Below, in pieces: positions 44,603 to 63,043 of a stretch of DNA of 64,000 nucleotides; positions within the stretch are counted from its first letter, which is position 1, and each line of letters opens with the position of its first letter. The translations under genes were made by a program, and so were the position numbers. The notes beneath the pieces were generated by a model. It had not been told where the DNA came from and made no database searches. It saw only the letters and a list, made by a program, of their open reading frames with translations. Origin of the DNA: Deltaproteobacteria bacterium (lineage in GTDB: Bacteria; Desulfobacterota; Binatia; JACPRU01); assembly GCA_016189835.1 (NCBI GenBank), contig JACPRU010000040.1, positions 1,230-65,229 of the forward strand, written 5' to 3'.

Positions 44603-46027
44603 TCAGCCCGCCGAACGCGTCGCCGCATGGCCGTATGCGGCTTCCGCGGCCTGCTCTCCCGAGCGGATGCAATCCGGCAGGCCGACGGCGCCGAGGCTGC
44701 CGCCGGCGAGGAACAGCCCGGCGTGGGACGCGAGCCGGCGGGCGATCGATGCGGCGCGCCGCGGGAAGCCGACCTCGTACTGCGGCATCGACCGCACGGC
44801 GCGCGTCGCGCGCGCGAAGCGCGGCTCGCCGCGGATGCCGAGAATGGCGCACAGCTCGCGGTCGACGAGCGACACGAGGGCGCCCTCGGAGAGCTCCGCC
44901 AGCGCCGGTCGCAGCGCGCCGCCGACGAAGCAGCGCACCAGCAGCTCGCCGCTGGGCCAGCAACCGGGGTATTTGAGGCTCACGTAGCTCGCGGCGAGCA
45001 GGTCGCGGCCCTCGCTGCGCGGCACGAAGAAGCCGAAGCCTTCGAGCGGCCGAGCGACGTCGGCGTCTCGGTAGGAGAGGTGGACGATCGCGCAGGAGGC
45101 GTACCGCTGGTCCCCCACCTCGCGCGCGAGGTCGGCATCGACGTCGCGCAGCGCCGGCGCCGATGCATAGGCCGGGCAGGCGAGCACCACCGCGTCGGCC
45201 AGGATCGCCGTCGAGCCGCCGGTGATCAGCCGCCAGGAGCCGTCCGGGTCGCGCGCGAGAGCGCGCAGCGGCGTGCGGGTGCGCGCCGCGCCCTCGGGCA
45301 GCCGCTCGACCAGCCGCTCGACGATCCGGCCGACGCCGCCGCGCGGGTAGGCGAAGCCGACGCCGCCGTGCGGCCGAATCGGCCCGCCGCCGGGGGAGCG
45401 GCGCAGGCCACGGCTCACGCTGCCGAACGCTCGCTCCATCTCGACGAAGCGCGGCAGCACGGCCGAGACCGAGAGCGCGTCCGCGTCGGCCATGAACACG
45501 CTGGCGAGCACGGGCTCAGCGGCGCGCTCGAGCACCTCGCCGCCGAAGCGCCGGGTGACGAACGATGCGAGGCTCTCGTCGTCGCGCGCGGGGGCCGGCG
45601 GCACGAAGCGCTCGAGCGCCATGCGCAGCTTCCCCCACGGCGAGAACAACGGCGAAACGACCACGGGCCAGAGCCGGGTCGGCGCCGTCATGAGAAATCC
45701 CGGCGGCAGCTCGCGCAGCCGGCCGCCGACCAGGACGCGCGCGCCGCCGCCGGCGTCGACCCGCAGCAGCTCGCCGTCGATGCCGAGGCGCTCGCAGAGC
45801 TCGACGCCGGCCGGCTTGGCGAGCAGGAACGAATCCGGACCGGCTTCGAGTAGCGCCGCGCCGACGCGATCGGTGCGAACCAGGCCGCCGAAGCGCCCGG
45901 CCGCCTCGAGCACGACGAGGGAGGGCGGCTCGCCGCGCTCGCGGCACAGCTCGCCCAGGCGGTGGGCGGTGGCGAGGCCGGCGATGCCTCCGCCGACCAC
46001 GGCGAACCTTCTGCGCTCGGGGCTCAT
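44603..46027 (-). CDS. hemY: Protoporphyrinogen/coproporphyrinogen III oxidase (HemY-type FAD enzyme)
   Basis: 474 aa from ATG 46027 (ATGA overlap with the hemH stop). Motifs FAVVGGGIAGLATAH and a C-terminal GLFLAGGSLGAVGLPDCIRSG. Confidence 0.8.
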   Translation of the reverse strand: MSPERRRFAVVGGGIAGLATAHRLGELCRERGEPPSLVVLEAAGRFGGLVRTDRVGAALLEAGPDSFLLAKPAGVELCERLGIDGELLRVDAGGGARVLVGGRLRELPPGFLMTAPTRLWPVVVSPLFSPWGKLRMALERFVPPAPARDDESLASFVTRRFGGEVLERAAEPVLASVFMADADALSVSAVLPRFVEMERAFGSVSRGLRRSPGGGPIRPHGGVGFAYPRGGVGRIVERLVERLPEGAARTRTPLRALARDPDGSWRLITGGSTAILADAVVLACPAYASAPALRDVDADLAREVGDQRYASCAIVHLSYRDADVARPLEGFGFFVPRSEGRDLLAASYVSLKYPGCWPSGELLVRCFVGGALRPALAELSEGALVSLVDRELCAILGIRGEPRFARATRAVRSMPQYEVGFPRRAASIARRLASHAGLFLAGGSLGAVGLPDCIRSGEQAAEAAYGHAATRSAG

Positions 46028-47082
46028 CGCTCCGCCAGCCAGCGCGACGCGTCGCGGGCGATCGCGACGACCGCCTCGGCCCACGCGTCGCGGGCGTTCA
46101 GCGACGGCACCAGGCGCAGCGTATCACCGCCGTTCGCGCGCCAGTCGTCGGCCGCGCGCAAGCCGATCTCCTCGATCGTCTCGAGACAGTCGGCGACGAA
46201 CGCCGCCGAGATCACCAGCGCCCGCTTCACGCCGCGCCGCGCGGCGGCGCGGATCTCGACGTCGGTGAAGGGACGGATCCAGCGCGGCGAGAACCGCGAC
46301 TGGAAGCAGACGAGGCGCCGTTCGGGCGGCACGCCGAGCGCGTCCGCGAGCAGCCGCGCGGTCGTGAGGCACTGCGCGCGGTAGCAGTCGCCGAGCGCGC
46401 CCGGGTTCTCGACGGCGGCGCGCGCGCAGCAGTCGGCGGCGGCGAGGCAATAGCCGCCGCGGCGGTCGCTCTTGCGGATCTGGCTCTGCGGCAAGCCGTG
46501 GAAGCTGAAGAACACGAGCTCGGGATCGACCTCACGCAAGAGCGGGGCCGCGCTCTCGGCCATCGCGGCGATGTAGCGCGGGTCGTCGAAGAAGGGCGGC
46601 ACGACGTGCAGGTACGGAACGTTCCATCGCCGCGAAGCCTCGGCGAAGACGCGCTCGATCGAGGAGCCGGTCGCCGCGGCGCTGTGCTGCGGATAGAGCG
46701 GGAAGACGACGAGCCGCCGCACGCCCTCGCGGTGGAAGCCGTCGATCGCCTCGGCGATCGACGGCCGGCCGTAACGCATGGCGAGCCGCACGACCGCCGC
46801 CGCGCCGAGGCGGCTCTGCACCTTGGCGGCGAGGTCCAGGCCGTGGAAGACGAGTGGCGAGCCGCGCTCGCTCCAGATCTTGGCGTAGGCGCGCGCCGAG
46901 CGCCGCGGGCGCAGCGGCAGGATGAAGAGGTTCAGCACCAGCCAGCGCAGCGCCGCGGGCAGGTCGAGCACGCGCGGGTCGGAGAGGAACTCGCGCAGGT
47001 AGCGGCGCACCGCGGCCGGGTGCGGCGCGTCGGGGGTGCCGAGGTTCACGAGCAGCAGGCCGGGAAGGTCGCGCGGCGGCAT
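46024..47082 (-). CDS. hemH: Ferrochelatase
   Basis: 352 aa: LLLVNLGTPDAPHPAAVRRYLREFLSDPRV and ISAAFVADCLETIEEI. Confidence 0.9.
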   Translation of the reverse strand: MPPRDLPGLLLVNLGTPDAPHPAAVRRYLREFLSDPRVLDLPAALRWLVLNLFILPLRPRRSARAYAKIWSERGSPLVFHGLDLAAKVQSRLGAAAVVRLAMRYGRPSIAEAIDGFHREGVRRLVVFPLYPQHSAAATGSSIERVFAEASRRWNVPYLHVVPPFFDDPRYIAAMAESAAPLLREVDPELVFFSFHGLPQSQIRKSDRRGGYCLAAADCCARAAVENPGALGDCYRAQCLTTARLLADALGVPPERRLVCFQSRFSPRWIRPFTDVEIRAAARRGVKRALVISAAFVADCLETIEEIGLRAADDWRANGGDTLRLVPSLNARDAWAEAVVAIARDASRWLAER

Positions 47083-47691
47083 TCACGATCCCGCTTTCGA
47101 TTCCTCGAGCACGCGGCGCGAGCGCCAGAAGACCTCGTCGAGCCCGAGCGGGTCGGCGCCGTAGCCGCCGCGCAGGCCGCCCGCGGCATCGACCAGAAAG
47201 ATCTCGCCGCCGGGCGCCGCGTCGAGACCCGCGCTCCGTCCGGCCGCGGCGGCGGCGGGCTCGATCCGGAATCCGTGCTCGGCGAGCTCGCGCACCTGCT
47301 CGCGCGGCCCGTGCAGCAGCACCCAGCGCCGGGGATCGAGGCCGTGGGTCTTCGCGGCTTCGCGCGCGCGCGCCGCCGCGCCGTCTTCGCGATCGGCGCT
47401 GATGCTCACCAGGCGAATCGAGTCGAGCCCCTCGTCGCGATAGCGGCGGGCGAGGCTCGACATCGCCTGCAGCCGGGCGGGCGTCGCGGCGAAGCTCGCC
47501 ACGTAGACGTGTCCGCGCAGCTCGTCGCTGCCGTAGCGCTCGCCGCTCGCCGTCATCAGCGAGAACTCCGGCACCTGCCCGATCACCGGCGGCGGGTCGG
47601 GGATCCGGCGCAAGAGCGGCCGCATCAGCGTGATCACCGCGCACCCCACGACGAACGCCCACAGGAAGGGGTTGCGCAGCCCGCGGCTCAT
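47083..47691 (-). CDS. SCO1/SenC-like thioredoxin-fold protein lacking the CxxxC copper site
   Basis: 202 aa with an N-terminal TM. VPEFSLMTASGERYGSDELRGHVYVASFAATPARLQ aligns by eye with the SCO motif F(G/T)xTxCPDVCP, but both Cys are replaced. ISADRED and WVLLHGPREQV match the SCO blocks ISVDPERD and WxxLTG. Confidence 0.55.
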   Translation of the reverse strand: MSRGLRNPFLWAFVVGCAVITLMRPLLRRIPDPPPVIGQVPEFSLMTASGERYGSDELRGHVYVASFAATPARLQAMSSLARRYRDEGLDSIRLVSISADREDGAAARAREAAKTHGLDPRRWVLLHGPREQVRELAEHGFRIEPAAAAAGRSAGLDAAPGGEIFLVDAAGGLRGGYGADPLGLDEVFWRSRRVLEESKAGS

Positions 47692-47957
47692 CGTGGGATC
47701 AGCTTCTCGAGGATCGCGGCGAACTTGTGCTGGCGGAGGTTCTGGCGGGCGTTCAGCAGGATCAGCAGGACGATGACGGCGCGGGGCGCGAGCGCGAAGC
47801 CGGGATCGCGCAGCCGCTCGTAGCCGTAGACGGCGGCGAGCGCCAGCGCCACCGCGATGCTCGCGTTCGAGAGGCTCGAGAACAGACGCTTGCGGCGAAT
47901 CGCCCGCCCGGCGAAGGCGCGTTCGGCCTCGGTGAGTGGCTCGTCTCGTTCGCTCAT
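47688..47957 (-). CDS. Small membrane protein (2 TM), first gene of the hemH operon
   Basis: 89 aa from ATG 47957. ATGA overlap with the downstream SCO-like gene. Confidence 0.4.
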   Translation of the reverse strand: MSERDEPLTEAERAFAGRAIRRKRLFSSLSNASIAVALALAAVYGYERLRDPGFALAPRAVIVLLILLNARQNLRQHKFAAILEKLIPR

Positions 47958-48190: not shown

Positions 48191-48838
48191 GTGGCACAGA
48201 TCTTTTCCGAACGAATCAATCGACTTCCCCTGTTCCTCGGCGTCGGGGCGCCCCTCGGCTTGGTCGGCGCGATCGCGTTCGTGTGGTACTTCTTCTCCCC
48301 CTGGTACACGGACGTCGGTTACCAGCCGACGCAGCCCGTCCCGTACAGCCACCGCCTGCATGCGGGCGACATGGAGATCAACTGCCGCTACTGTCATGCG
48401 ATGGCGGAGATCTCGCCGGCGGCCGGCGTGCCGCCCACTCAGTCGTGCATGAACTGTCACACCCTGGCGATGAAGGACAGCCCGCGGCTGCAGCCGATTC
48501 GCGACAGCGCGGCGGATGGCCTTCCCATGCGCTGGGTGCGCGTGCACGAGCTGGCCGACTACGTCTACTTCGAGCACGCCTCGCACGTACGGGCGGGCGT
48601 GGGCTGCGTGTCGTGTCACGGCCGCATCGACCAGATGGACGTCGTGCGCGAGGAGAAGCCGCTCAGCATGAGCTGGTGCCTCGACTGTCACCGCGACCCC
48701 GCTCCGAATCTCCGGCCCGTGGATCAGGTGACGAACATGCGCTGGGTCCCGCCGCCGAATCATCCCGAGTGGGCGCTACGGACGATCCAGGAGCGCGGCA
48801 TCCAGCCGCCGGTCGACTGCTCGGGGTGCCATCGGTGA
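48191..48838 (+). CDS. actA: Alternative Complex III-type pentahaem cytochrome c (ActA)
   Basis: GTG start and an N-terminal TM. Five CxxCH motifs (CRYCH, CMNCH, CVSCH, CLDCH, CSGCH). QPVPYSHRLHAG...INCRYCH is typical of ActA. Confidence 0.85.
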   Translation: MAQIFSERINRLPLFLGVGAPLGLVGAIAFVWYFFSPWYTDVGYQPTQPVPYSHRLHAGDMEINCRYCHAMAEISPAAGVPPTQSCMNCHTLAMKDSPRLQPIRDSAADGLPMRWVRVHELADYVYFEHASHVRAGVGCVSCHGRIDQMDVVREEKPLSMSWCLDCHRDPAPNLRPVDQVTNMRWVPPPNHPEWALRTIQERGIQPPVDCSGCHR

Positions 48839-48929
48839 GCCAAGACTCCGCGACCCGGCGGCCGGCGAAGGGCGAGGAGCGGCCCCGGGACGGTGTTCCC
48901 GAGCGGCCGGAGCGCTCGCGGGGACGCGA

Positions 48930-51862
<2,933 letters not shown>

Positions 51863-51866
<4 letters not shown>

Positions 51867-52558
51867 AGGGGCACGCGAAGAAGGCGGCGCAAGAGGCTGC
51901 GGGGGGAACGGGTTTGCTTGGGACGGACTCGTCGCCGTCCACGGCGCAAACCCGTTCCCCCCGCAGCCGTGTCACCGGGCATCTGCTGATCGTAGTCCTC
52001 GGCGCCGTGCTCGCCGTCACCACGCTGGAGGGCTGCATGCGCGGCTGCGGCTCCTCGCGGCCGCCGATCCACCCGAACTACAGCATGTTCAACCAGCCGA
52101 AGTACCGCCCCTATGGCGCCAGCGCGTTCTTCTACGACGGAGCGGCGATGCGCCGGCCGGTGCCGGGCACCGTGGCCCGCGGCCACCTCGTCGAGGATCC
52201 GGTACTCGAGAGCGGCAAGAGCGCCGACGGCTCGCCGGTCGCCTCCTCGCCCGTGGCGGTGGACGAGGCGCTCGTCGACCGCGGCCGCGACCGCTACGGC
52301 ATCTATTGCCAGCCCTGCCACGACGAGCGCGGCGAGGGCAAAGGCATTCTCTTCCAGCGCGCCAAGGTGCCGACCGCGAACCTGCTCGACAAGCGCATCC
52401 GCGACCTGCCCGACGGCAGCCTGTTCGACACCATCACCAACGGCAAGGGGCTGATGGCGGGCTACCGCTATCCGATCCGCGCGCGCGACCGCTGGGCGAT
52501 CATCGCCTACGTGCGGAGCCTGGAGAAGGCGCAGGCGCAGAGGGAGGCCGCGCGGTGA
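51863..52558 (+). CDS. actE: ActE-like lipoprotein monohaem cytochrome c
   Basis: GTG 51863 overlaps the actB stop. Signal/lipobox-like LIVVLGAVLAVTTLEGC. MFNQPKYRPYGASAFFYDGAAMRRPVPGTVARG, CQPCH and RDRWAIIAYVRSLE match ActE. The first 35 codons are a palindromic element, so the start is uncertain. Confidence 0.7.
51895..51968. repeat. Perfect 23-bp inverted repeat with nested 6-bp inner hairpin
   Basis: GGCTGCGGGGGGAACGGGTTTGC (51895..51917) and its exact reverse complement (51946..51968). The 28-nt spacer contains GGACGG/CCGTCC (51921..51940). Confidence 0.9.
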
Positions 52559-54426
52559 ACCGTCGAGCGCTCCTCGGCATCGTCGGCGCGTTCCTGCTGC
52601 TCACCGCGGTGCTGCGCGTGTGGGTGGCGGTCAACGATCGGGCCTACCGGGCGCCGGTCTACTCCACCCAGGTGCAGCCGGTGCCGCGCGAGCAGGGCAT
52701 CGCCGATCAGCAGAAAGCGGCCGAAGCCAAGGCCAAGGCCAAGAAATACGAGGCGCCGACGTACCGTCAGTTTCCGTTCGTCGGCAGCCGCGTGGCGATC
52801 TGGGTGGTCGCCGAGCTGCACCTGATGTTCGCCGCCTTCGTGCTCGCCGTACCGATGTTCGCGTTCATCATCGAGGTGATCGGCTACGCGACCGGCGACA
52901 AGCGCTACGACCGGCTGGCCTTCGAGTTCACCAAGCTGCTCTCGACCTCGTTCTCGTTCACGGCGAGCTTCGGCGGCTTTCTGACCTTCATGCTGATCGC
53001 GCTCTACCCGGCGTTCACGAACTACCTGATGGAGGTCTTCTCGCCGACGTTCCTGCCCTACGTGCTGCTGTTCTTCGCCGAGGCGGGCTGCCTCTACAGC
53101 TACTACTACGGCTGGGGCAAGTTTCATCCGCTCGTCCACCTCGCGCTCGGCCTGGCGATCAACGTGGTCGGCACCCTGATCATGTTCATCGCCAACGCCT
53201 GGGCCTCGTTCATGATGACGCCGCAAGGCATCTCCGACTCCGGGGCGCTCGTCGATCTCTACGCCGCGTTCGACAACTTCACGTGGATGCCGATCAACAT
53301 CCACCGCTTCATCGGCAACATCGCCTTCGGCGGATCGGTGGCCGCGGCGTACGCGGCGTGGAAGTTCCTGCACGCCGAGACCGACGAGCAGCGCGCCCAC
53401 TACGACTGGATGGGCTACGTCGGCAACTTCGTCGCGATCAGCGCGTTCCTGCCGCTGCCGTTCGCCGGCTACTACCTCGCCGCGGAGATCTACGCCTACA
53501 ACCAGGCACTCGGCATCATGATGATGGGCGGCGCGTTCTCCTGGCTGTTCATCATCCAGGCCGTCTTGATCGGCAACCTGTTCCTCGCCGCCAACTACTA
53601 CCTGTGGCTCGGCATGGGCCGGGTCGAGGGTGTGCAGGCCTACCAGAAGTACGTCAAGTACCTGCTGGCGGCGATCGCCGTGTGCTTCGCGGTGTGGGCG
53701 ACGCCGCACTCGCTCATCGCCACCACCGCCGAGATCCGCGCGATGGGCGGAACGCTGCATCCGATGCTCGGCTACCTCGGCGTGATGTCGGCGAAGAACA
53801 CCGCGGTGAACGTGCTGATCCTCACCACGTACGTGAGCTTTCTCTTCTATCGCCGCACCGGAAAGCGGCCGACGGTGTCTTGGGCGAAGCTCGGCAACCT
53901 CGTGCAGTTCCTGATCTTCGCGGCCTCCACCGCGATCGTGATCTTCTACGGCATCTACGGCTACTTCGTGGAGGCGGCGGTGCGCATCGCCTTCTCGGTG
54001 CCGCAGGTGCTGTCGGTGCTGGTGGCGATGGTATTGATGACGGTGATCGACATCTTCCTCATGCGCGGCGCCCACGCCACGGGCGAGACCCACTGGGGCA
54101 AGATCCCGGCGGTCTCGCAGTACGTGCTGATCTTCATCGCCGTGACGTTCACCTGGCTCATGGGGCTGATGGGCTACGTCCGATCGGGCCTCCGCCAGCA
54201 CTGGCACGTGTACGGCGTGCTGGTGGATTCTTCGCCCGATGCCTTCACGCCCACGCTGGGATTCGCGGCCAACGTCGTCTCGGTCTGCGTGATCCTGTTC
54301 TTCGCGCTCATCGCGTTCGTGTTCTGGCTCGCCAGCCTGCACGACAAGAGGGATTGGGGGACGACGCAATCCGACGAGCCGGCCCACGGCGGGCACGCGC
54401 CGAAGAGGGTGTCGGCGGGCTCATGA
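52555..54426 (+). CDS. Cytochrome bd subunit I (CydA)-like polytopic membrane protein, no CydB partner
   Basis: 623 aa, GTGA overlap with actE. By eye it aligns to E. coli CydA at AELHLMFAAFVLAVPMF (H19 region), FFAEAG (E99 region), IANAWASFMM, NIHRFIGNIAFGG...AAW (H186 region) and GLRQHW (GRQPW region). It has a much shorter Q-loop and extra C-terminal TM helices. Confidence 0.6.
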   Translation: MNRRALLGIVGAFLLLTAVLRVWVAVNDRAYRAPVYSTQVQPVPREQGIADQQKAAEAKAKAKKYEAPTYRQFPFVGSRVAIWVVAELHLMFAAFVLAVPMFAFIIEVIGYATGDKRYDRLAFEFTKLLSTSFSFTASFGGFLTFMLIALYPAFTNYLMEVFSPTFLPYVLLFFAEAGCLYSYYYGWGKFHPLVHLALGLAINVVGTLIMFIANAWASFMMTPQGISDSGALVDLYAAFDNFTWMPINIHRFIGNIAFGGSVAAAYAAWKFLHAETDEQRAHYDWMGYVGNFVAISAFLPLPFAGYYLAAEIYAYNQALGIMMMGGAFSWLFIIQAVLIGNLFLAANYYLWLGMGRVEGVQAYQKYVKYLLAAIAVCFAVWATPHSLIATTAEIRAMGGTLHPMLGYLGVMSAKNTAVNVLILTTYVSFLFYRRTGKRPTVSWAKLGNLVQFLIFAASTAIVIFYGIYGYFVEAAVRIAFSVPQVLSVLVAMVLMTVIDIFLMRGAHATGETHWGKIPAVSQYVLIFIAVTFTWLMGLMGYVRSGLRQHWHVYGVLVDSSPDAFTPTLGFAANVVSVCVILFFALIAFVFWLASLHDKRDWGTTQSDEPAHGGHAPKRVSAGS

Positions 54427-54917
54427 GATCTCCGGTCGGCGTCAACGTGGTCCTGGTGGTGGCGGGCGCGACGCTCTTCTACACCTACGTCGGCCAGCTC
54501 GTGCCGCAGAAGGAGCTGCAGCCGCCGCCGAAGGTCGAGATCACCCAGGAGATGACGCCGGTACAGCTCGCCAAGGTCGGCGACGAGCTCGCGCGCGGCA
54601 AGGGCATGTGCCTCACCTGCCACACGGTCGGGCACAGCGGCGGGCCGCTCCGCTATCCCGACCTCGCCGGCGTGGCCGAGCGGGCCAAGACGCGCGTCGC
54701 GGGGCTCGATCAGCTGCACTACTTCGCGCAGTCGGTCTGCCAGCCGGACGCGTTCGTCGTCGCCGGCTTCGCGCCGGGCATGCCGGCCATCCACAGGCCG
54801 CCGATCGGGCTCTCCGACGAGGAGCTGCACGCGGTGGTCGCGTGGCTCCAGAGCCAGGGGGGGCAGGCGACGATCACCTTGAAGGAGAAGCTGCCGTACT
54901 GCGGAGGCCCCGGGTGA
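54423..54917 (+). CDS. Membrane-anchored monohaem cytochrome c
   Basis: 164 aa with an N-terminal TM and one CxxCH (CLTCH). ATGA overlap with the upstream gene. Confidence 0.7.
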   Translation: MRSPVGVNVVLVVAGATLFYTYVGQLVPQKELQPPPKVEITQEMTPVQLAKVGDELARGKGMCLTCHTVGHSGGPLRYPDLAGVAERAKTRVAGLDQLHYFAQSVCQPDAFVVAGFAPGMPAIHRPPIGLSDEELHAVVAWLQSQGGQATITLKEKLPYCGGPG

Positions 54918-54930
54918 GCGGAGACCGCGC

Positions 54931-55758
54931 ATGAAGCTCGCGATCGTCCTTGCCGTCGTCGCCGTGATGGTCGTGCTGCGCCTGGTGCGCGCCGGGCTGC
55001 TCGTGTGGCTCGCCGCCTGGTGGGTCGGCACGTACGCGGTGCTGCGCTACGGCTTCGTGACGCCGATTCCCGCTTCCGCCCTGCACATCTTCATGGCGAT
55101 CACGGCGCTCTCGCTGTTCGCCTACGCGACGTCGAGCCGCGAGCGGATGCGCGCGACCTACGAGCCGGTCCTCGCGTTCGCGAGCGAGAGCCGCTTCACG
55201 CTGCCGCTCGCGCTGGTGGCCGCGTCGATTCCCGGGGTCGTCGCCTGGAGCGTCTACCAGGGCCTGCAGCAGCCGCTCCAGCCGCCTTACTTCGGGCGCA
55301 CGGTCCACCCGTCGCCGCCCGCCGAGATCACGTCGCGCGGCGAGAAGGTCGATCTCGCGCGCGCCGCCAACCCCTTCCGCAATCTCGAGAAGACGGACGT
55401 CCAGGCGTTTCGCCGGCACGTCGAGAACGGCCGGCGGGTTTACTACCGCAACTGCTTCTTCTGTCACGGCGACGACCTCGGCGGCGCCGGGATGTACGCC
55501 CACGGCCTCGACCCGGTGCCCGCGAACTTCCTCGACTCGGGCGTGCTGCCGATGTTCCAGGAGTCGTTCTTCTTCTGGCGCATCGCCAAGGGCGGCCCGG
55601 GCATGCCCGACGAGGGCGCCCCCGGCGACTCGGCGATGCCCGAGTGGGAGCGCATGCTCAGCAACGAAGAGATGTGGGACGTGATCCTGTTCCTCTACGA
55701 CGACGCGGGCTACCGGCCGCGGGCGCTCGAGGCAGTCGGCGCCGAGGTGGCTCACTAG
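54931..55758 (+). CDS. Polytopic (about 4 TM) membrane protein with C-terminal monohaem cytochrome c domain
   Basis: 275 aa with one CxxCH (CFFCH), followed by MPEWERMLSNEEMWDVILFL, typical of class I cytochromes c. Confidence 0.7.
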   Translation: MKLAIVLAVVAVMVVLRLVRAGLLVWLAAWWVGTYAVLRYGFVTPIPASALHIFMAITALSLFAYATSSRERMRATYEPVLAFASESRFTLPLALVAASIPGVVAWSVYQGLQQPLQPPYFGRTVHPSPPAEITSRGEKVDLARAANPFRNLEKTDVQAFRRHVENGRRVYYRNCFFCHGDDLGGAGMYAHGLDPVPANFLDSGVLPMFQESFFFWRIAKGGPGMPDEGAPGDSAMPEWERMLSNEEMWDVILFLYDDAGYRPRALEAVGAEVAH

Positions 55759-57456
55759 ATGCCTCCGATTTCGCGACGCCACGAGGCCTCCTCCTGGGTG
55801 ACGCTCGCCCTGGCCCTGGCGGCGCTGCCGTGCTTCGCCGCGCCCGCGCCCGACCTCGGCACGGATCAGCAACGACAGGCGGGAAAGCCGCTCTACGACC
55901 GGCACTGTTCGCAGTGCCACGGCGAAAAGGGGGACGGCCTCGGCGTGGCGGCGCCGTTCCTCAGCCCCAAGCCCCGCGACTTCACCTCCGGCAAGTTCAA
56001 GATCCGCACCACGCCGAGCGGCGCACTGCCCACCACGCAGGATCTCAAGGCCATCATCCGCGCCGGGATGCCCTACACCGCGATGCCGGGCTGGCCGCAG
56101 TTCAACGACCGGCAGCTCACCGACGTCGCGTACTACGTGAAGTCGTTCGCCGCGGACTTCGCCGACCCCGATCGCCAGCCCGAGCCGATCCAGAGCCCGC
56201 CGGTGCCGGCCATCAGCGGCGAATCGATCGGCAGAGGCAAGAAGCTCTACGAGGAGCTCGGCTGCGCACGCTGCCACGGCGAGACGGGCCGCAGCGACGG
56301 CGTCGCGGCGCCGACGCTGACCGACGACTGGGGATACCTGATCCGCTCCGCCGACCTCACTCGGCGCTGGACGTTCCGCGGCGGCCCGACGCGCCAGGAA
56401 ATCTTCCGTGCATTCTCGACCGGCCTGAACGGTACGCCCATGCCTTCGTTCGTCGACGCGCTGACGGTCGAGCAGCGCTGGGATCTCGCCGACTTCGTCT
56501 ACTCGCTGTCGCCGAGGGACTCGCCGGAGTACGCGACGCTGCTCGTCGCCAAGAAGGTCGCACGCGAGCTGGACCTGGCCGAAGGGGCGAAGCTCTTCGA
56601 GGAAGCCGAGCCCGCCTACTTCCCGGTGATCGGCCAGATCATGCAGCCGGGGCGCGCGTTTCACCCGTCGTGCAACGGCATCGCCGTGCGCGCCGTCTAC
56701 AACGAGACCGACATCGCCTTCGAGCTGCGCTGGAACGACATGCGGGCGGAGGTCACGGGCAAGAACGGACCCGAGCTGGCGGTGGCGGCGGCCGAGGACG
56801 AGGGCGACGAGCCCGCCGCGGCGCCGCCGGCCGCTGAAGGTGGCGGCGGGTGGGGCGACGCGGAAGCCGCCGCGCCGGCGGCCGAGCCCGCCGCGGCGCC
56901 GGCCGACGTTTGGGGAGAAGGCGAAGCCGGCGCCGCGGCGTCTGCGGCCGTACCGCAGAGCGAATTCTCCGACGCCGTGGCCATCCAGTTCCCGGCCGAG
57001 AAGTCGCTGACGATCCGCAAGCCCTACTTCGTCTTCGGCGACAAGGGCAACGCCGTCAACCTCTGGTTCGTCGACCTCGCGAAGCCGGAGCCGGCGCTGT
57101 ACGTCGGCCGGGGCAGCGACTCCCTGGAGCCGCTCGGGCCCCGCGATCTGACGGTCACCCGCGGCTACGACAAGGGCGAATGGACCGTCGTCTTCAAGCG
57201 GCGGCTGCGCAGCCAGGGAGAGGTCACGTTCGAGGAGCAGGGCTTCCTGCCGATCGCCTTCTCGGTGTGGGACGGCCTCGCCGGCGAGCGGGGCAACAAG
57301 CGCGGCCTCACCAACTGGTGGACCGTCTATCTCTCGCCCGACGAGAAGCCGTCGCTCGTCCGCGAGATGGCGAAGTGGGGGGGGCTGGCGTTCGCGCTCG
57401 AAGTGGTGTTCATCGGCTGGGCACGCCGCCGCGCGCACAACTCGGCGGGATCCTGA
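55759..57456 (+). CDS. Dihaem cytochrome c fused to EB_dh-like (type II DMSO-reductase gamma-subunit-like) haem-b domain, C-terminal TM anchor
   Basis: 565 aa with a signal peptide and two CxxCH (CSQCH, CARCH). The C-terminal about 270 aa (AVRAVYNETDIAFELRWND...DAVAIQFP...NLWFVD...GEWTVVFKRRL...IAFSVWDG) resemble the ethylbenzene-dehydrogenase gamma/NxrC-type domain from memory. Terminal TM is GGLAFALEVVFIGW. Confidence 0.55.
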   Translation: MPPISRRHEASSWVTLALALAALPCFAAPAPDLGTDQQRQAGKPLYDRHCSQCHGEKGDGLGVAAPFLSPKPRDFTSGKFKIRTTPSGALPTTQDLKAIIRAGMPYTAMPGWPQFNDRQLTDVAYYVKSFAADFADPDRQPEPIQSPPVPAISGESIGRGKKLYEELGCARCHGETGRSDGVAAPTLTDDWGYLIRSADLTRRWTFRGGPTRQEIFRAFSTGLNGTPMPSFVDALTVEQRWDLADFVYSLSPRDSPEYATLLVAKKVARELDLAEGAKLFEEAEPAYFPVIGQIMQPGRAFHPSCNGIAVRAVYNETDIAFELRWNDMRAEVTGKNGPELAVAAAEDEGDEPAAAPPAAEGGGGWGDAEAAAPAAEPAAAPADVWGEGEAGAAASAAVPQSEFSDAVAIQFPAEKSLTIRKPYFVFGDKGNAVNLWFVDLAKPEPALYVGRGSDSLEPLGPRDLTVTRGYDKGEWTVVFKRRLRSQGEVTFEEQGFLPIAFSVWDGLAGERGNKRGLTNWWTVYLSPDEKPSLVREMAKWGGLAFALEVVFIGWARRRAHNSAGS

Positions 57457-57469: not shown

Positions 57470-59494
57470 ATGTACAAGACCATCTACGTTCCGGTGGACA
57501 ACTCCGACTTCTCCAATCAGGCCGTTCGCCTGGCCATCGATCTCGGCAAGAGCTTCGGCTCGAAGATGGTGGGCTGCCACGTCTACGCGGCCAAGATGCA
57601 CGACTACCGCTTCAAGCAGATGGAGTACACGCTGCCCGCGGAGTACCTCGAGGAGACCGAGCTCGAGCGGCAGCGGAAGATCCACGACAGCCTGATCACC
57701 ATGGGCTTGAAGCTCATTTCCGACAGCTATCTCGCGTCGATGGAGCAGCAGTGCGGGGCGGCCGGCCTCGAGTTCGAGCCGCGCATGACGGACGGCAAGC
57801 ACTCGACCGAGATCGTCAAGGACCTCGCCGCGGGCGGTTACGACCTGGTCGTGCTCGGCGTGCTCGGCCTCGGCCGCGTGCGCGACAGTCAGGTGGGATC
57901 GGTTTGCGAGCGCGTGGTGCGTCACGCCAGGCAGGACGTGCTCGTGGTCAAGCAGTTGCCGAACGGGGACGGCGCCGCGCGCGACACGATCCTGGTCGGC
58001 ATCGACGGCAGCCCGCAGTCCTTCGGGGCGCTCTTGACGGCGACCGACCTCGCCAAGCGCTTCGGCAAGAAGGTCGAGGCGATCGCCGTCTACGATCCCT
58101 ACCTCCACTACACCGTGTTCAACGGCATCGTGAACGTGCTCAGCGAGAAGGCGGCCAAGGTCTTCCGCTTCGAGGAGCAGAACCAGCTGCATGAGGAGGT
58201 GATCGACACCGGGCTCGCGCAGATCTACCAGTCGCACCTCGAGGTGGCCGCGAAGATGGCGGTCGAGACCGGCTTCGAGATCCAGAAGACGCTGCTCGAC
58301 GGCAAGGCATTCCAGAAGGTGTTGAACCACGCCCGCAAGATCGATCCCTGGCTGCTGGTGGTCGGCCGCACGGGGATTCACGGCGTGAAGGACGAGACCG
58401 AGCTCGGCAGCAACGCGGAGAACCTGTTCCGCAGCTGCCCGTGCGACCTGCTGCTCACCACCCGGCTCGAGGTCCCCGAGCTCGACGTCAAGGCCGAGGA
58501 GTCGATCCGCTGGACGGCTGAGGCCGAGGAGCGCATGACCCGCGTGCCGCCGCTCGTGCAGGGGATCGCGCGCACCGCGATCTACCGCCTGGCGATCGAG
58601 AGGGGCCACAGCGTGATCACCAGCAGCCTGCTCGACGAGGCGATGGAGCGGTACATGCCGAAGGGCGCGAAGGCGACGACGCGGCTGGCCGAGAGCGTCG
58701 TGCTCGAGCACGCGAAGGACCGGGCGGTGTCGATCTGCAAGAAGTGCGGCGTGTCGGCGGCCGAGGCGAGCCCCGTCGCGTGCGCGGTCTGCGGCGGCGA
58801 CGCCTTCCACGTGATCTCGCCGGGAATGGTCGAGGAGATCATCGAGAGCGAGGGCGGAGCGCAGGCCGAGACCACCTACGACGGCCGCACGCTCACCTGG
58901 ACGCGCGAGGCCAAGCGGGCGTTGTGGACGATTCAGGACGGCTACCAGCGCCGTCGCACCAAGGCGCGGGTCGAGAAGGCGGCGCGTCTGAGGCGGTTCG
59001 AGGCCGTGAGCCTGGAGCTGGCCCGGGCGCTGATCGAGGAGGAGACCGGCGAGCCGCTGGTGCTGCCGCCGCGAGGCGCCGAGGCGCCCCCGCCGCCGGC
59101 CGAGACGCAGGACGGCAAGAAGCTCGTTGCCCGTGACGAGAAGCGCAACCCCTTGTTCTCCGCGCTCGACTGGCAGCCGGACGCGGTCATGCGGATCCTG
59201 CGCGTGCCGGCCGGGTTCATGCGCAACCGCACGCAGCAGAGGATCGAGGACCTGGCACGTGAGCGCGGCGCCGACGCGATCGACCTCGCGCTCGTCGAGG
59301 AGGGCATCGAGCAGGGCCGCCAGCTCATGGAAGAGATGATCCAGGAGTACAAGGCGAATCCGCAGGCCGCGCGCGCGACGACGACTCGCCCCGAACCGCC
59401 GCCGTCCGCCGCGGCTCCCGCTTCCGACGGTTTGCCGCTGAACGAGGTCGGCGTCATGGCGGTCATGGAAGCGAGGCGGGCCGGTAAGGCCTGA
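57470..59494 (+). CDS. Tandem universal stress protein (UspA x2) fused to zinc ribbon and three PCP_red-like domains
   Basis: 674 aa. Usp motifs (IYVPVDNS...GSVCERVVRHARQDVLVV; ILVGIDGS...LGSNAENLFRSCPCDLLL). CKKCG...CAVCG. Three W(T/Q)xEAxxxLxRVPxFV...ERG...-type domains at about 58505..58657, 58892..59041 and 59165..59329. Confidence 0.6.
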   Translation: MYKTIYVPVDNSDFSNQAVRLAIDLGKSFGSKMVGCHVYAAKMHDYRFKQMEYTLPAEYLEETELERQRKIHDSLITMGLKLISDSYLASMEQQCGAAGLEFEPRMTDGKHSTEIVKDLAAGGYDLVVLGVLGLGRVRDSQVGSVCERVVRHARQDVLVVKQLPNGDGAARDTILVGIDGSPQSFGALLTATDLAKRFGKKVEAIAVYDPYLHYTVFNGIVNVLSEKAAKVFRFEEQNQLHEEVIDTGLAQIYQSHLEVAAKMAVETGFEIQKTLLDGKAFQKVLNHARKIDPWLLVVGRTGIHGVKDETELGSNAENLFRSCPCDLLLTTRLEVPELDVKAEESIRWTAEAEERMTRVPPLVQGIARTAIYRLAIERGHSVITSSLLDEAMERYMPKGAKATTRLAESVVLEHAKDRAVSICKKCGVSAAEASPVACAVCGGDAFHVISPGMVEEIIESEGGAQAETTYDGRTLTWTREAKRALWTIQDGYQRRRTKARVEKAARLRRFEAVSLELARALIEEETGEPLVLPPRGAEAPPPPAETQDGKKLVARDEKRNPLFSALDWQPDAVMRILRVPAGFMRNRTQQRIEDLARERGADAIDLALVEEGIEQGRQLMEEMIQEYKANPQAARATTTRPEPPPSAAAPASDGLPLNEVGVMAVMEARRAGKA

Positions 59495-59586: not shown

Positions 59587-60426
59587 ATGTCGGGCTATCG
59601 CTTCTGCCGCACGGACGACATCCCCGCTCTGGTCGACGCCTACAACGACTGCTGGCTGCCGCACTTCGCCCCGCAGGCCCCGCTGACCGTCGACGCCTTC
59701 AAGCGCGAGGTTCGCGAGATCCATCTGTGGGCGTCGAGCTGCATGCTGGCGACCGAGGACGACCGGTCGATCGGCGTGCTGCTCGGCGCCAAGCGCGACG
59801 ACGCCAACTTGGTGCGGGCGATCGCCCTGCGGCCTGGCCACGAGCGCCGCGGTCATGGCCGGCACCTGCTCGATTCGCTGCGCCGCAAGGTCGCAATCCT
59901 CGGACCGCGGCGGCTGCTCGTCGAAGTGCCGGCGGAGTGGGGGGGCGTGCGGCGCTTCTTCGAGCGGTGCGGCTTCCACGCCGAGGCCCGCTACGTGGAT
60001 TTCGCGCACGCGGCGCCGCGGCGCGCGCCGGTGGCTCCGGCGGCGCTGGTTTCGGCGATCACCCTCGAGGAGCTGCGCGAAGCCGGGGCGTTCGACCCGC
60101 CTCCGGGTTTGCCCTGGGAGCGGTCCCCGCAAACGCTCGTCAACCGCAGTCGACAGATAGAGGGCCTGGCGGTGGCTTCCGACGTGCGCATCGAGGCCTA
60201 CCTGCTCCATCGCCGCGTCGGGGCCGGCAACGAGCTGCTCGCCGTGGGCGGCCCGCGGGCCGAGCTCTTGCATCTGCTGCTCGCCGGACTCTATGAACGG
60301 ACGAGCGGCCCGATCACGTTTCCCAAGGTGAGCGAGCGGGAGACGGCTCACGCCGCTCTGCGGGACCTCGGGTTCGAGTCCGTGCGCGAGCACGTCGGGT
60401 ATGCGGCCGAGCTGAGCGAATCGTGA
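59587..60426 (+). CDS. GNAT-family acetyltransferase-like protein
   Basis: 279 aa. IALRPGHERRGHGRHLLDSL (acetyl-CoA-binding R/QxxGxG-like block) and FFERCGF. Confidence 0.5.
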   Translation: MSGYRFCRTDDIPALVDAYNDCWLPHFAPQAPLTVDAFKREVREIHLWASSCMLATEDDRSIGVLLGAKRDDANLVRAIALRPGHERRGHGRHLLDSLRRKVAILGPRRLLVEVPAEWGGVRRFFERCGFHAEARYVDFAHAAPRRAPVAPAALVSAITLEELREAGAFDPPPGLPWERSPQTLVNRSRQIEGLAVASDVRIEAYLLHRRVGAGNELLAVGGPRAELLHLLLAGLYERTSGPITFPKVSERETAHAALRDLGFESVREHVGYAAELSES

Positions 60427-61292
60427 AGAGCTACTTCGACATCGCCGGCGACGGCGGCTCGCGCGTTCTCGAGCAGGTCCGGGCCAAGCAGTCGCGCATC
60501 GCCGCGGCGCTCGCGGGCGTGCGGCGCATGGTGGCGGTCGGCTCCGGCAAGGGCGGCGTCGGCAAGAGCACGCTCACCCTGCAGCTCGCCCACGCGCTGC
60601 GCGAGGACGGCGCCTCGGTCGCGATCCTCGACGCCGACCTGAACGGTCCCAGCCAGGCGCGCATGACCGGGCTCGGCTCGGTGGCGCCGGTACCGGGGCC
60701 CGACGGGCTCGTCCTGCCGCGCACCGCCGCGGGCATCGGCGTGGTGTCGATGGGCCTCTTCGTCCCCGAGTCCGCGGCGCTCGACTTCGAGAGCGTCGCC
60801 GCCGGGGACAGCTACGTGTGGCGGGCGACCAAGGAGTTCGCGGTGCTCGGCGATCTGCTCGCCGGAGTCGCCTGGGGCCCGCTCGACTTCCTGCTCGTGG
60901 ACCTGCCGCCCGGGGCGGAGCGCACCGTGCAGTACGCCGAGTTCTTCGGCGCCGCCGCCGCGCTCGTGCTCGTCACCTTGCCCTCGGATCTCTCTCGCGG
61001 CGTGGTCGCGCGCTCGGTAGCGGGGCTCCGCCGGGCGCCGAATCGAGTGCTCGGTTACGTGGAGAACATGAAGGGCTACTGCTGCAGCGAGTGCGGCTCG
61101 GTCCGTCCGCTGTTCGCCGAGTCGTCCGCGATCGATCTCGGCATCCCCTGTCTCGGCGCGGTGCCGTTCGATCCCGCGCTCGCCGCCGCCTGCGACCGCG
61201 GCGAGCCGCTGCCCGCAGCGGCCGCCGGCCCGGCGTGGCCTGCGGTTCGTTCCGTGGCCGCGGCGATCCGCGGCGCACTGGAGGCGTCATGA
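60423..61292 (+). CDS. Mrp/NBP35/ApbC-family P-loop ATPase (Fe-S cluster carrier)
   Basis: GTG start overlapping the upstream stop. VGSGKGGVGKST, DADLNGPS, VENMKGYCCSECG. Confidence 0.85.
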   Translation: MKSYFDIAGDGGSRVLEQVRAKQSRIAAALAGVRRMVAVGSGKGGVGKSTLTLQLAHALREDGASVAILDADLNGPSQARMTGLGSVAPVPGPDGLVLPRTAAGIGVVSMGLFVPESAALDFESVAAGDSYVWRATKEFAVLGDLLAGVAWGPLDFLLVDLPPGAERTVQYAEFFGAAAALVLVTLPSDLSRGVVARSVAGLRRAPNRVLGYVENMKGYCCSECGSVRPLFAESSAIDLGIPCLGAVPFDPALAAACDRGEPLPAAAAGPAWPAVRSVAAAIRGALEAS

Positions 61293-61702
61293 AGTTTCTC
61301 TGCGTGCTGTGCGATCAGCCGATGAAGCTCGTCGAGGTCGCGCCGCCGGATCGCGGCGCGCTCAGCGTGCTCTACGAGTGCCCCGAGTGCGCGCACCGCA
61401 TCGCCATGCTCACCAACCCGTTCGAGACGCAGATGGTGACCTCGCTCGGCGTCGAGATCGGCCCGGGCGGCGAGAAGACCGAGTCGAAGTGCCCGTTCTC
61501 GGCGATGGTGCCGGGCGCGGGCGCGCCCGGCGCCGAGAGCGGCGTGACCTGGACCGCGAGCGCGCTCCGGCGCCTCGAGCGGATCCCCGAGTTCGTGCGG
61601 CCGATGGCGCGCGGCGGCATCGAGCGCTTCGCACGCGAGCGCGGCCTCAGCGAGGTCGACGAGGCGGTGCTCGACGAGGCGAAGAGCTTCTTCGGCATGT
61701 AG
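61289..61702 (+). CDS. Zinc-ribbon + PCP_red-like domain protein
   Basis: 137 aa, ATGA overlap. CVLCD...CPEC ribbon. The C-terminal VTWTASALRRLERIPEFVRPMARGGIERFARERGLSEVDEAVLDEAK strongly resembles the ChlB/BchB C-terminal (PCP_red) domain. Confidence 0.6.
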   Translation: MKFLCVLCDQPMKLVEVAPPDRGALSVLYECPECAHRIAMLTNPFETQMVTSLGVEIGPGGEKTESKCPFSAMVPGAGAPGAESGVTWTASALRRLERIPEFVRPMARGGIERFARERGLSEVDEAVLDEAKSFFGM

Positions 61703-63043
61703 GTGGAGACCCGGGATTCGCCGCCCGTCTTCCGATCGGGAACCGACGTGGACGCCTCCTTCGCACGACCGTACGTCATCTCCTGGAACCTGACGTATCG
61801 CTGCAACCTGGCCTGCGAGCACTGCTACCTCGACGCCGGCGGCAAGCCCGAGGTCGCCGCCCCCGCCTTCGCGGACCGCAGCGAGCTATCGACCGAGGAA
61901 TGCCTGCGCGTCGCCGACGAGATCGCCGCCTTCGCCCCGGACTGCCTGCTGATCCTGACGGGCGGGGAGCCGCTGCTGCGGCGCGACATCCTGGAGATCG
62001 TCCGCCACGCCGCGGCCCGGGGGCTGTGGGTGGTGGTGGGCACCAACGGCGTGAAGATCACCGAGAACCTCGCGGAGATCCTGCGCCGCGAGGGAGCCCG
62101 CGGCCTGTCGCTCTCGCTCGACGCGCTGGACCCGGAGCGGCACGACCGCTTCCGCCGCGTGCGCGGCGCGTGGCGCAACACCGTGGAGGGCGCCAAGATC
62201 CTCGCGCGCGCGGGCCTGCCGTTCATCGTGCAGACCACCGTCGCCCGCCACAACGTCGGCGAGCTCGCCGCCATCGCCGCGTTCGCCTGCGAAGAGCTCG
62301 CGGCGAGCGTGTGGAACCTCTTCTTCCTGGTTCCGACCGGCCGCGGGGCGCACGTCTCCGACCTCGACGCCGCCGCCTACGACGGCGTGCTCGCCGAGCT
62401 GCAACGGCTGCAGCGCCGCTTCGCCGGGCGCATGCTGGTCAACGCGAAGTGCGCGCCGCACTACGTCCGGCTGCTGCAGGGCGAAGCGGGGCAGGGGGCG
62501 GTGGTCAAGGGCTACGCCGGCGGCGCCGGCGGCTGTCCCGCGGGCACCCACTACCTCGGCATCCGTCCGAACGGCGACGTCACGCCGTGCCCCTACCTGC
62601 CGCTGTTCGGCGGAACGTTGAAGCGCTCGACCCTGCGCGAGATCTGGAGCGATTCGGATCCGTTCGTGCGCATCCGCGACCGCGCGCGGCTCGGCGGCCG
62701 CTGCGGCGCTTGCGAGCTGAACGCGGCCTGCGGCGGCTGTCGCGCACGCGCCTTCGGCATGACCGGCGACGTGCTCGCCGAGGACCCGCTGTGCACGCAT
62801 CAGCCCGGAACCTTCGGCCGGCCGGCGGCCCCGGACGTCGAGTACGGCGGGGCGGTCGAGACGACGCTGCCGTGGGACGCGGCGGCGCGCGAGCGCATGC
62901 AGCAGGTCCCCGCCTTCGTGCGCGGCATGGTCAGCCGCCGCGTCGAGGCCTACTGCCGCGAGCAGGGGCTGCCGCGCGTCACCGAGCAGGTGCTCGGCGA
63001 GATCCGCGCGCGCATGCCGACGCCGAAGCTGTTCGGCAGATGA
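61703..63043 (+). CDS. Radical SAM/SPASM enzyme (AhbD/NirJ-like haem-modifying type) with C-terminal PCP_red-like domain
   Basis: GTG start immediately after the upstream stop. CNLACEHC (CxxxCxxC), GGEPLL, SPASM Cys clusters (CPAGTHYLGIRPNGDVTPCPY; CGACELNAACGGCRARA). C-terminal LPWDAAARERMQQVPAFVRGMVSRRVEAYCREQGLPRV. Confidence 0.85.
   Translation: METRDSPPVFRSGTDVDASFARPYVISWNLTYRCNLACEHCYLDAGGKPEVAAPAFADRSELSTEECLRVADEIAAFAPDCLLILTGGEPLLRRDILEIVRHAAARGLWVVVGTNGVKITENLAEILRREGARGLSLSLDALDPERHDRFRRVRGAWRNTVEGAKILARAGLPFIVQTTVARHNVGELAAIAAFACEELAASVWNLFFLVPTGRGAHVSDLDAAAYDGVLAELQRLQRRFAGRMLVNAKCAPHYVRLLQGEAGQGAVVKGYAGGAGGCPAGTHYLGIRPNGDVTPCPYLPLFGGTLKRSTLREIWSDSDPFVRIRDRARLGGRCGACELNAACGGCRARAFGMTGDVLAEDPLCTHQPGTFGRPAAPDVEYGGAVETTLPWDAAARERMQQVPAFVRGMVSRRVEAYCREQGLPRVTEQVLGEIRARMPTPKLFGR

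Follow-up and report, generated by a model that had tools for sequence, protein, structure and literature searches.

The function of the cytochrome bd-like (OR-N) proteins has been a question since the Nitrospira and Nitrospina genomes. Operons of the OR-N2 subfamily are already known to encode several cytochromes c and an EbdC homologue (10.1101/2021.01.16.426971), and the same gene set has been described as TO_1 in Ca. Manganitrophus (10.1101/2021.11.15.468770); that OR-N2 proteins reduce O2 is a hypothesis in the literature. In Nitrospirales, and in TO_3 of Ca. Manganitrophus, genes encoding alternative complex III (ACIII) are located upstream of an OR-N5 CydAA' bd-like oxidase (PMC12342949; 10.1101/2021.11.15.468770). 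Here, we analysed a stretch of 64,000 nt (the window) of contig JACPRU010000040.1 from the Binatia-affiliated genome assembly GCA_016189835.1, in which the ACIII genes actA, actB, and actE are detached from actCDF and placed directly upstream of an OR-N2 module. The seven genes concerned (48191-57456) probably represent the electron-wire half of an ordinary, split-encoded ACIII beside an OR-N2 terminal module.

The window has a G+C content of approximately 70%, its genes were called by codon-usage score, and the window proteins are found in GenBank as MBI2963283-MBI2963289. The cluster consists of the following genes:

48191..48838, + strand: ActA, a pentahaem cytochrome c with an N-terminal transmembrane (TM) anchor (five CxxCH motifs; 6f0k_A)
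48930..51866, + strand: ActB, 978 aa, exported by twin-arginine translocation (Tat), with MopB-like B1 and four-cluster iron-sulfur (Fe-S) B2 parts (6f0k_B; TIGR04519)
51863..52558, + strand: ActE, a monohaem cytochrome c lipoprotein (6f0k_E; one CxxCH motif; start uncertain)
52555..54426, + strand: CydA-like polytopic protein of 623 aa, assigned to OR-N2 (NIDE0901-type) by Pfam, AlphaFold2 (AF2), Foldseek, and residue signature
54423..54917, + strand: membrane-anchored monohaem cytochrome c (Pfam Cytochrom_C 3e-7)
54931..55758, + strand: monohaem cytochrome c that begins with about three TM segments (Pfam Cytochrome_CBB3 3e-9; TM scan)
55759..57456, + strand: fusion protein joining a dihaem cytochrome c with an EB_dh domain and ending in a TM segment (Pfam Cytochrom_C twice, EB_dh 2.1e-13)

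All seven are intact open reading frames (ORFs) on the + strand, as a first-pass annotation made from the sequence alone had described them, and each of its gene identifications was borne out by Pfam and solved structures. Its count of ten CxxCH motifs was also exact. Although the genes and their order were given correctly, the end of the run was not: the unbroken co-directional run, with junctions of -4 to 92 nt, spans 48191-63662 and thus includes six further genes. A mis-assembly, which the annotation had raised as a possibility, is excluded because 53 independent genome assemblies share this gene order.

The products of the first three genes have their best solved relatives in the ACIII of Rhodothermus marinus. 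ActA, with its TM segment at residues 14-32, matches 6f0k_A over its full length (E = 2e-77), ActB matches 6f0k_B (E = 2e-297), and ActE matches 6f0k_E (E = 3.7e-45), the latter alignment starting at the lipobox (...LEGC) and including its cysteine. ActB carries a Tat-variant signal domain (TIGR04519, QrcB/QrcC-like) and four cysteine groups (CIGCNACVVAC, CQHC..., CIGTRYCSNNCP, and CSYC...), one of which is of the three-cysteine type C-x5-C-x3-CP, as expected for the [3Fe-4S] cluster FeS1. Haem count, Tat signal, Fe-S motifs, and ActE lipobox are the same as in the structurally solved complexes (Rhodothermus marinus 6F0K, Flavobacterium johnsoniae 6BTM, Roseiflexus 6LOD, 8K9E). ActA, ActB, and ActE are therefore true ACIII subunits, orthologues rather than look-alikes, and make up the complete periplasmic electron-transfer arm of ACIII, which carries all cofactors of the complex, predicted from the sequence as one [3Fe-4S] and three [4Fe-4S] clusters and six c haems. 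In contrast to the solved complexes, the act genes are split here into actABE and actCDF, actE follows actB instead of lying between actD and actF, and the window lacks the actCDF half.

The fourth protein is related to CydA, the Pfam family Cyt_bd_oxida_I covering residues 78-314 only (1.2e-21, above cutoff; profile positions 2-239 of 418) and leaving the Q-loop part of the profile unmatched. In an alignment to TM helices 1-5 of CydA, H89 and H250 are the equivalents of His19 and His186. All of 32 close homologues and no fewer than 90% of 50 diverse ones share H89, and the His19-equivalent haem ligand and the equivalents of His186 and Glu107 are all nearly invariant among homologues, while a tyrosine takes the place of one of the two proton-channel glutamates. 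An AF2 model based on a shallow alignment (at least 70% identity) reached a predicted local distance difference test (pLDDT) score of 49, and the use of 50 diverse homologues raised this value to 85, with a predicted template modelling (pTM) score of 0.82 and approximately 14-15 long helices. Foldseek searches against the PDB returned CydA chains as all of the top 10 hits (E between 4e-10 and 1.5e-6), with weaker matches to CydB, and ActC (6btm_C) appeared at rank 41 (E = 0.82, probability 0.08). Neither Pfam nor NCBIfam matched the NrfD family to this protein. Foldseek also ruled out that its C-terminal half is NrfD-like, which would have explained a docking of ActB. According to this model, the 623-aa protein is CydA-like over its whole length and not NrfD-like, in agreement with the first-pass annotation, which had preferred CydA over the NrfD/PsrC family. 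Compared to cytochrome bd (CydAB), the fold and the haem-ligand histidines are shared, but CydB and the Q-loop are missing, and the protein has extra helices, c-type partners, and the Glu-to-Tyr exchange in the channel.

A residue signature places this protein more precisely. For the 14-TM OR-N2 reference TKS59798.1, the signature is H99/Y183/E190/Y197/Y199/H213/H269/S563/W569 (Murali, Gennis and Hemp, Supplementary Table 6; 10.1101/2021.01.16.426971). The window protein has H89/Y169/E176/Y183/Y185/H195/H250/S544/W550, matched to the reference by spacings and not by direct alignment, and these residues are conserved among its homologues. We therefore assign it, on the basis of this signature, to the published OR-N2 (NIDE0901-type) subfamily of bd-like proteins. 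Genes four to seven are thus a member of the described but biochemically uncharacterised OR-N2/TO_1 module, with which they share the approximately 14 TM helices, the CydA-like N-terminal part with both histidine equivalents, the absence of a Q-loop, the Tyr/Glu/Tyr/Tyr/His/Ser/Trp signature, and an operon in which two cytochromes c are encoded together with an EbdC-like, periplasmic cytochrome b. The relationship to bd-like proteins of the Nitrospira type that have c-type partners, as suggested beforehand, was thus correct. The module differs from its described counterparts in three respects: it is preceded by ActABE, whereas those stand alone or beside a Rieske/cytochrome b module; its EB_dh domain shares one polypeptide with a dihaem cytochrome c; and its carriers are Binatia-like bacteria and Acidobacteriota instead of nitrite or Mn oxidisers. 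No CydB or second CydA-like gene was found in the cluster or the related loci; the other polytopic ORFs of the window were scanned only in part. An additional N-terminal TM helix was considered as a feature specific to the ActABE-linked forms and rejected, as homologues without ActABE also carry a divergent N-terminal hydrophobic segment.

The three cytochrome genes complete the module. The start codon of the small cytochrome c, ATG 54423, overlaps the stop codon of the CydA-like gene as ATGA, and in some homologues (P0121, P0122, and P0136) the CydA-like protein carries this cytochrome as a C-terminal fusion; these fusions support the view that the two proteins form a physical complex. The EB_dh haem-b domain resembles the EbdC/NxrC gamma subunits of type II DMSO-reductase-family enzymes (above the Pfam cutoff; TIGR03477 1.6e-22) but differs from them in that the TIGR03477 match is below its cutoff, in that a dihaem cytochrome c and a TM segment are fused to it, and in that it has no catalytic molybdoenzyme gene nearby. 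Such a gene was not present in any locus examined, and the only alpha-beta-like protein encoded near the EB_dh gene is the cofactor-less ActB.

More than 7,400 homologues of the CydA-like protein (E <= 1e-10) were found in a 90% clustered collection, the best 120 of which are 70-90% identical to it, and a scan of one genome per species identified at least 581 genomes with a relative. The 80 best of these at least 581 genomes are all metagenome-assembled genomes (MAGs), mostly of aerobic soil and sediment lineages; they include Acidobacteriota (Vicinamibacterales, Thermoanaerobaculia, Polarisedimenticolia) and 'delta proteobacterium'/Binatia-like members as well as Rhodothermales/Bacteroidota, Calditrichia, and Fibrobacteria. 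In two Fibrobacteria loci (L069 and L073), a cytochrome c domain precedes the CydA-like protein N-terminally in the same frame, and one homologue of 32% identity (P0161) is encoded alone among unrelated genes. Of 82 genome loci searched by tblastn with the window proteins, 70 have enough upstream sequence to be judged. Mining these neighbourhoods for ActB beside CydA-like genes, as the first-pass annotation had proposed, revealed the pairing in 53 of the 70 loci, where ActA-ActB-ActE lies directly upstream of the CydA-like gene; in the other 17, ActABE is absent from the upstream sequence seen (up to 10 kb). The three cytochrome genes follow the CydA-like gene in every locus with room for them. 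ActABE is thus a frequent but non-obligatory companion of the OR-N2 module.

The ACIII genes that are missing from the cluster are found in an operon of their own in related loci. On a 7-Mb contig of a 'delta proteobacterium' MAG (L056), which encodes a CydA-like protein 83% identical to that of the window, the divergent unit comprises the genes for a small 2-TM protein, SCO1, ActC, ActD, ActF, and a cupredoxin-like protein, with no ActA, ActB, or ActE of its own (582-5552). ActC was reconstructed from this locus and used to scan metagenome contigs. The closest ActC relatives (76-93% identical) are all located in SCO1-ActC-ActD-ActF-Cup operons with no ActE between ActD and ActF, and more distant ones occur in the canonical ActABCDEF order. 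In L083, L085, L086, and L088, this operon is divergent to ActA-ActB-ActE (tblastn); L085, L086, and L088 continue from ActABE into the CydA-like and cytochrome genes, and L083 ends within ActB. On other metagenome contigs (L089, L091/092, L094, L096, and L097), ActC-ActD-ActF-Cup stands alone with no ActA or ActB within reach. SCO1 orthologues lead into ActC in L056, L083-L088, and L164, and the small 2-TM gene is conserved beside ActA in many loci.

The partner operon extends beyond the act genes. In L164 (GCA_020848745.1, 10001-18108), the seven-gene cluster is divergent to genes for a 91-aa protein, SCO1, an NrfD-type ActC, ActD, ActF, and a CarboxypepD_reg-like protein, after which the operon continues with COX1, COX3, COX4, two small ORFs, and COX2 (Pfam gene calls). 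ActC, ActD, and ActF of this locus match 6f0k_C, 6f0k_D, and 6f0k_F (E = 6e-202, 1e-48, and 1e-86, respectively), so that the orthologues encoded by the relatives complete the ACIII set. Where measured, the CydA-like proteins of the group formed by L056, L083, L085, L086, L088, and L164 are 77-83% identical to that of the window. The CarboxypepD_reg-like protein of the partner operon contains a C-x2-H-x2-M cupredoxin-type motif, and many ActC homologues of the partner-operon clade are fused to ActD (PF11821 + PF03916, 640-716 aa).

Other placements of these genes were also observed. On contig JAXLQJ010000005.1 (L034 + L163, 10001-18183), the ActC-...-COX2 operon is convergent and ends 55 nt past the radical-SAM gene of the cluster. 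COX2 occupies the same convergent place in ten further ActABE-linked loci (L001/L023 on one contig, L002, L006, L011, L021, L022, L024, L032, L033, and L043), and L051 has the entire convergent COX operon. In the Rhodothermales/Bacteroidota loci L070, L071, L079, and L080, the CydA-like gene is immediately preceded by a co-directional cupredoxin-like gene and COX1-COX3-COX4-COX2; in L080, ActC-ActD-ActE-ActF precede this set, and canonical ACIII, COX, and OR-N2 genes all point in one direction. Rieske and cytochrome b genes take the place of ACIII beside OR-N2 in L167, a bc-type context like the published one of Nitrospirota. OR-N2 modules are thus repeatedly placed beside a complex-III-type module across lineages. 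This arrangement resembles the known ACIII-caa3/aa3 clusters, in which a complex-III substitute is found beside a terminal oxidase, and the actCDF operon of the relatives indeed runs into COX1-COX3-COX4-COX2; it differs in offering two candidate terminal modules, aa3 and OR-N2, one for each half of the act genes.

ActC, ActD, and ActF have no cofactors and do not function without ActAB. Because the sole ActABE copy of these relatives is the one beside the CydA-like gene, the two operons together encode one complete ACIII with each of the six subunits present once. The first-pass annotation had proposed instead that the CydA-like protein replaces ActC and ActF in an NrfD-free complex, which is not supported: the relatives encode ActCDF once, in a partner operon without its own ActABE. 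It had also named immediately adjacent ActC, ActD, and ActF as the observation that would speak against its proposal, and exactly this is seen in relatives such as L056 and L164, but not in the window itself. In the split complex that we favour, the membrane half ActC-ActD-ActF would be encoded elsewhere in the genome; in the nearest relatives, its genes are accompanied by those of an aa3-type oxidase and a cupredoxin-like protein. Quinol would be oxidised at ActC, as in the solved ACIII structures, and electrons would pass from FeS1 in ActB via the ActA haems to ActE. From there, the c-type cytochromes anchored in the membrane and the haem b of EB_dh may pass them on to the b-type haems of the CydA-like protein, where O2 would presumably be reduced. 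OR-N2 could then serve as a second terminal branch alongside the route from ACIII to aa3, comparable to the ACIII-caa3 and ACIII-OR-N5 clusters.

Several observations weigh against a split complex in this particular organism, first of all the unit that is divergent to the cluster in the window:

47688..47957, - strand: small 2-TM protein that opens the divergent unit (two hydrophobic segments; no family match)
47083..47691, - strand: SCO1/SenC-like copper chaperone (Pfam SCO1-SenC 2.2e-5, barely over cutoff)
46024..47082, - strand: ferrochelatase, HemH (Pfam Ferrochelatase 2.5e-88; TIGR00109 217 bits)
44603..46000, - strand: HemY-type protoporphyrinogen/coproporphyrinogen oxidase (Pfam Amino_oxidase 6e-45; NCBIfam TIGR00562 215 bits, above cutoff)

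This unit keeps the small 2-TM and SCO1 genes, after which HemH and HemY are found instead of the ActC-ActD-ActF of close relatives. The 48 kb upstream and the 6.5 kb downstream of the cluster contain no gene for ActC, ActD, ActF, or COX, and a tblastn search for ActC, ActD, ActF, the cupredoxin-like protein, and COX1-4 had no match in the whole window. The earlier statement that the window contains no NrfD, ActD, or CydB thus holds by tblastn for NrfD and ActD, and CydB is absent from the cluster; of the three other polytopic proteins predicted in the window (9541-10545, 16408-17634, and 17649-18335), the first was compared with a family library and is an SBF-like transporter. The 22-kb locus of the closest relative, L003, likewise gave no match to an ActC fragment (tblastn), and its flanks mirror those of the window, with HemY-HemH-SCO1 on one side and DsbA on the other. 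Furthermore, none of the ActC clusters inspected contained a protein with an MBI29632xx accession, although this covered the top hits and part of the cluster members, and MAGs are incomplete; the window genome may hence lack ActC altogether. Finally, the 17 loci that have OR-N2 but no upstream ActABE demonstrate that ACIII is not obligatory for OR-N2, we infer the contact between ACIII and OR-N2, and O2 reduction by OR-N2 is taken from a hypothesis in the literature.

Phylogenetic bracketing nevertheless favours a partner operon at another place in the genome. A neighbour-joining tree of ActB places L001/L023 as sister to the window and L003, and the L056/L085/L086/L088/L164 group as sister to all of these. 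Because of this bracketing, we consider it quite likely that the partner operon has been relocated elsewhere in the window genome, counting both an integrated and a merely co-located ACIII, and regard its true loss as a minority possibility of low probability.

Among the alternatives, the one that survives best is that ACIII and OR-N2 are separate complexes whose genes are only co-located or co-regulated, with OR-N2 being fed by a soluble cytochrome c or the cupredoxin-like carrier and not by ActE. The occurrence of OR-N2 modules without ActABE, and also beside bc-type modules or aa3 operons, is consistent with this explanation, as is the cupredoxin-like carrier gene in the partner operon; in addition, ActE of Flavobacterium is reported to be dispensable for electron transfer to aa3 (PMC8552683). 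However, among four relatives with gene calls, three (L001, L164, and, by coordinates of the high-scoring segment pairs, L085) retain the 4-nt overlap of actE and the CydA-like gene, and one (L002) has a 10-nt gap; this conserved translational coupling suggests stoichiometric co-production. Moreover, the cytochromes of the module are all membrane-anchored and none is soluble (Pfam, TM scan). We therefore regard mere co-location as rather unlikely.

A second alternative is the NrfD-free complex mentioned above, in which ActABE would dock on the CydA-like protein, quinol would be oxidised by the latter, and EB_dh would possibly act as a gamma-like seat for ActB. The lack of any NrfD-type gene in 64 kb, the 4-nt overlaps that couple the genes tightly to the CydA-like gene, and the likeness of ActB to alpha-beta-type fusions, which are seated by gamma subunits of the EB_dh type, speak for such an assembly. 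So does a second ActA-ActB-ActC set, cut by the end of the locus, that is divergent to the ActABE-CydA-like cluster in an Acidobacteriota MAG (L029, 1-4678, - strand): the CydA-linked ActABE of this genome would be a paralogous extra copy and not the sole one, and thus surplus to a canonical ACIII. These arguments are countered by the six related loci, five of them in the ActB clade of the window, that encode ActC, ActD, and ActF once and without their own ActA, ActB, and ActE beside the cluster, by the absence of a Q-loop quinol site from this CydA-like subfamily, and by the 17 OR-N2 modules without ActABE, which together make the NrfD-free complex improbable. We give similarly little credence to a variant restricted to the window and L003, according to which these two lost ActCDF and retain a descendant of ACIII whose ActABE docks on OR-N2 with EB_dh seating ActB and whose O2 site would receive a haem of its own, possibly a non-canonical one, from the AhbD/NirJ-like and PCP_red proteins described below.

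It is also very unlikely that OR-N2 is no O2 reductase and instead lets electrons enter or exit between periplasmic partners and ACIII or the quinone pool, for instance via a molybdoenzyme docking on EB_dh, and also with the reversed flow of electrons once put forward for Nitrospina: although Lücker et al. (2013) called the bd-like function enigmatic and raised an ACIII-like role in reverse flow, one proton-channel glutamate is replaced, and the partner operon already encodes an aa3 oxidase, the equivalents of His19, His186, and Glu107 are nearly invariant, no catalytic molybdoenzyme gene occurs in the loci examined, and the carriers mostly belong to aerobic soil and sediment lineages.

Downstream of the cluster, the co-directional run continues with six genes, which include a conserved tetrapyrrole and Fe-S maturation set:

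57470..59494, + strand: Usp domains fused to two PCP_red (BchB C-terminal-like) domains (Pfam Usp 1e-40, PCP_red 7e-22)
59587..60426, + strand: GNAT-family acetyltransferase (Pfam Acetyltransf_1/7)
60423..61292, + strand: Mrp/ApbC-type Fe-S cluster carrier ATPase (Pfam ParA (NUBPL) 1e-52; NCBIfam MrpORP/ApbC below cutoffs)
61289..61702, + strand: small PCP_red-domain protein (Pfam PCP_red 1.2e-16)
61703..63043, + strand: AhbD/NirJ2-like radical SAM/SPASM enzyme fused to PCP_red (Pfam Radical_SAM, SPASM, PCP_red)
63060..63662, + strand: DsbA-like thioredoxin-fold protein that closes the run (Pfam DSBA 2e-16)

The radical SAM enzyme reaches 294 bits with the AhbD model TIGR04545 and 279 bits with NirJ2, each under the cutoff of 500. 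Usp, Mrp, PCP_red, and radical-SAM genes accompany OR-N2 across phyla in both ActABE-linked and ActABE-less loci (tblastn), with the Usp-PCP_red gene travelling with the module in nearly all of them. Since these maturation genes are kept in the loci without ActABE, they belong to the OR-N2 module and not to ACIII. The set points to a dedicated system by which haem is made or modified for the bd-like protein. Judging from their annotation, HemH, HemY, and the AhbD-like gene product could together provide haem b locally by a coproporphyrin-type route, and the simplest reading of the three is a putative local supply from coproheme to haem b of the AhbD type; alternatively, they may provide a modified haem for the bd-like site. 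HemH and HemY genes are neighbours of the module in several loci, and a HemY gene is found in the equivalent position in L003, L012, L019, L025, L033, and L037. The radical-SAM gene comes directly after the EB_dh gene in Rhodothermales/Bacteroidota loci such as L063, L070, L074, and L079. We found no description in the literature of this maturation set, i.e. of PCP_red and AhbD-like genes beside bd-like oxidases.

A few features of the window are more peripheral. The junction of ActB and ActE is occupied by a hairpin:

51895..51968, + strand: 74-nt hairpin (minimum free energy -67.7 kcal/mol, z = -9.4)

Its perfect 17-bp arms (51901-51917 and 51946-51962) sit between the ActB stop codon and the ActE lipobox, and it is the sole hairpin of such stability in the window. 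Because of its position, the ActE start codon is uncertain; candidates range from GTG 51863, in a GTGA overlap with the ActB stop codon, to internal starts as late as 52007. In the more distant relatives L001, L002, and L164, the two genes overlap by 4 nt and ActE has a short signal peptide; the closest relative, L003, also has a long extension upstream of ActE. The element looks like either an inserted palindrome or an mRNA-processing or stability signal. Among the loci of the relatives, the DsbA-like gene was matched by tblastn in L003 alone. Beyond it, the end of the window cuts a gene (63703-63999, - strand), the C-terminal 98 residues of which resemble the C-terminal domain of glutathione S-transferases; many relatives have the COX2 of the partner operon in this position. 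At the opposite end (3-8202, - strand), a run of genes resembles, by eye, a V/A-type ATPase operon; it would encode a subunit of 628 aa with five TM segments towards its C-terminus and a proteolipid-like product of 73 aa with two TM segments.

All parts of this system are known, namely ACIII, the OR-N2/TO_1 module, and the theme of an ACIII followed by an oxidase, and the cluster is probably not a new kind of complex. The closest parallel to the last is the ACIII-OR-N5 arrangement, in which ACIII genes are also located directly upstream of a Q-loop-less bd-like oxidase and are interpreted as a quinol-to-O2 chain. There, however, actC and actD are part of the same operon and two OR-N5 CydA paralogues with 10 TM helices are present, whereas here OR-N2 is single-copy and, in the relatives, the NrfD-type genes are found in another operon. 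We could not find a description of ActABE joined to OR-N2 or of split actABE and actCDF operons in the literature; the split of the act genes, the linkage of actABE to OR-N2 in Acidobacteriota and Binatia-like bacteria, and the maturation set thus appear to be undescribed. For genome annotation, the findings advise caution, as a seemingly incomplete ACIII may in fact be a split one. They also tie OR-N2 genetically to a quinol-oxidising ACIII, an aa3 oxidase, and a tetrapyrrole and Fe-S maturation set outside the slow-growing nitrifiers, and thereby offer handles on whether ACIII feeds OR-N2 directly, whether OR-N2 may constitute a second, perhaps high-affinity, oxidase branch, and whether it would need a special haem.

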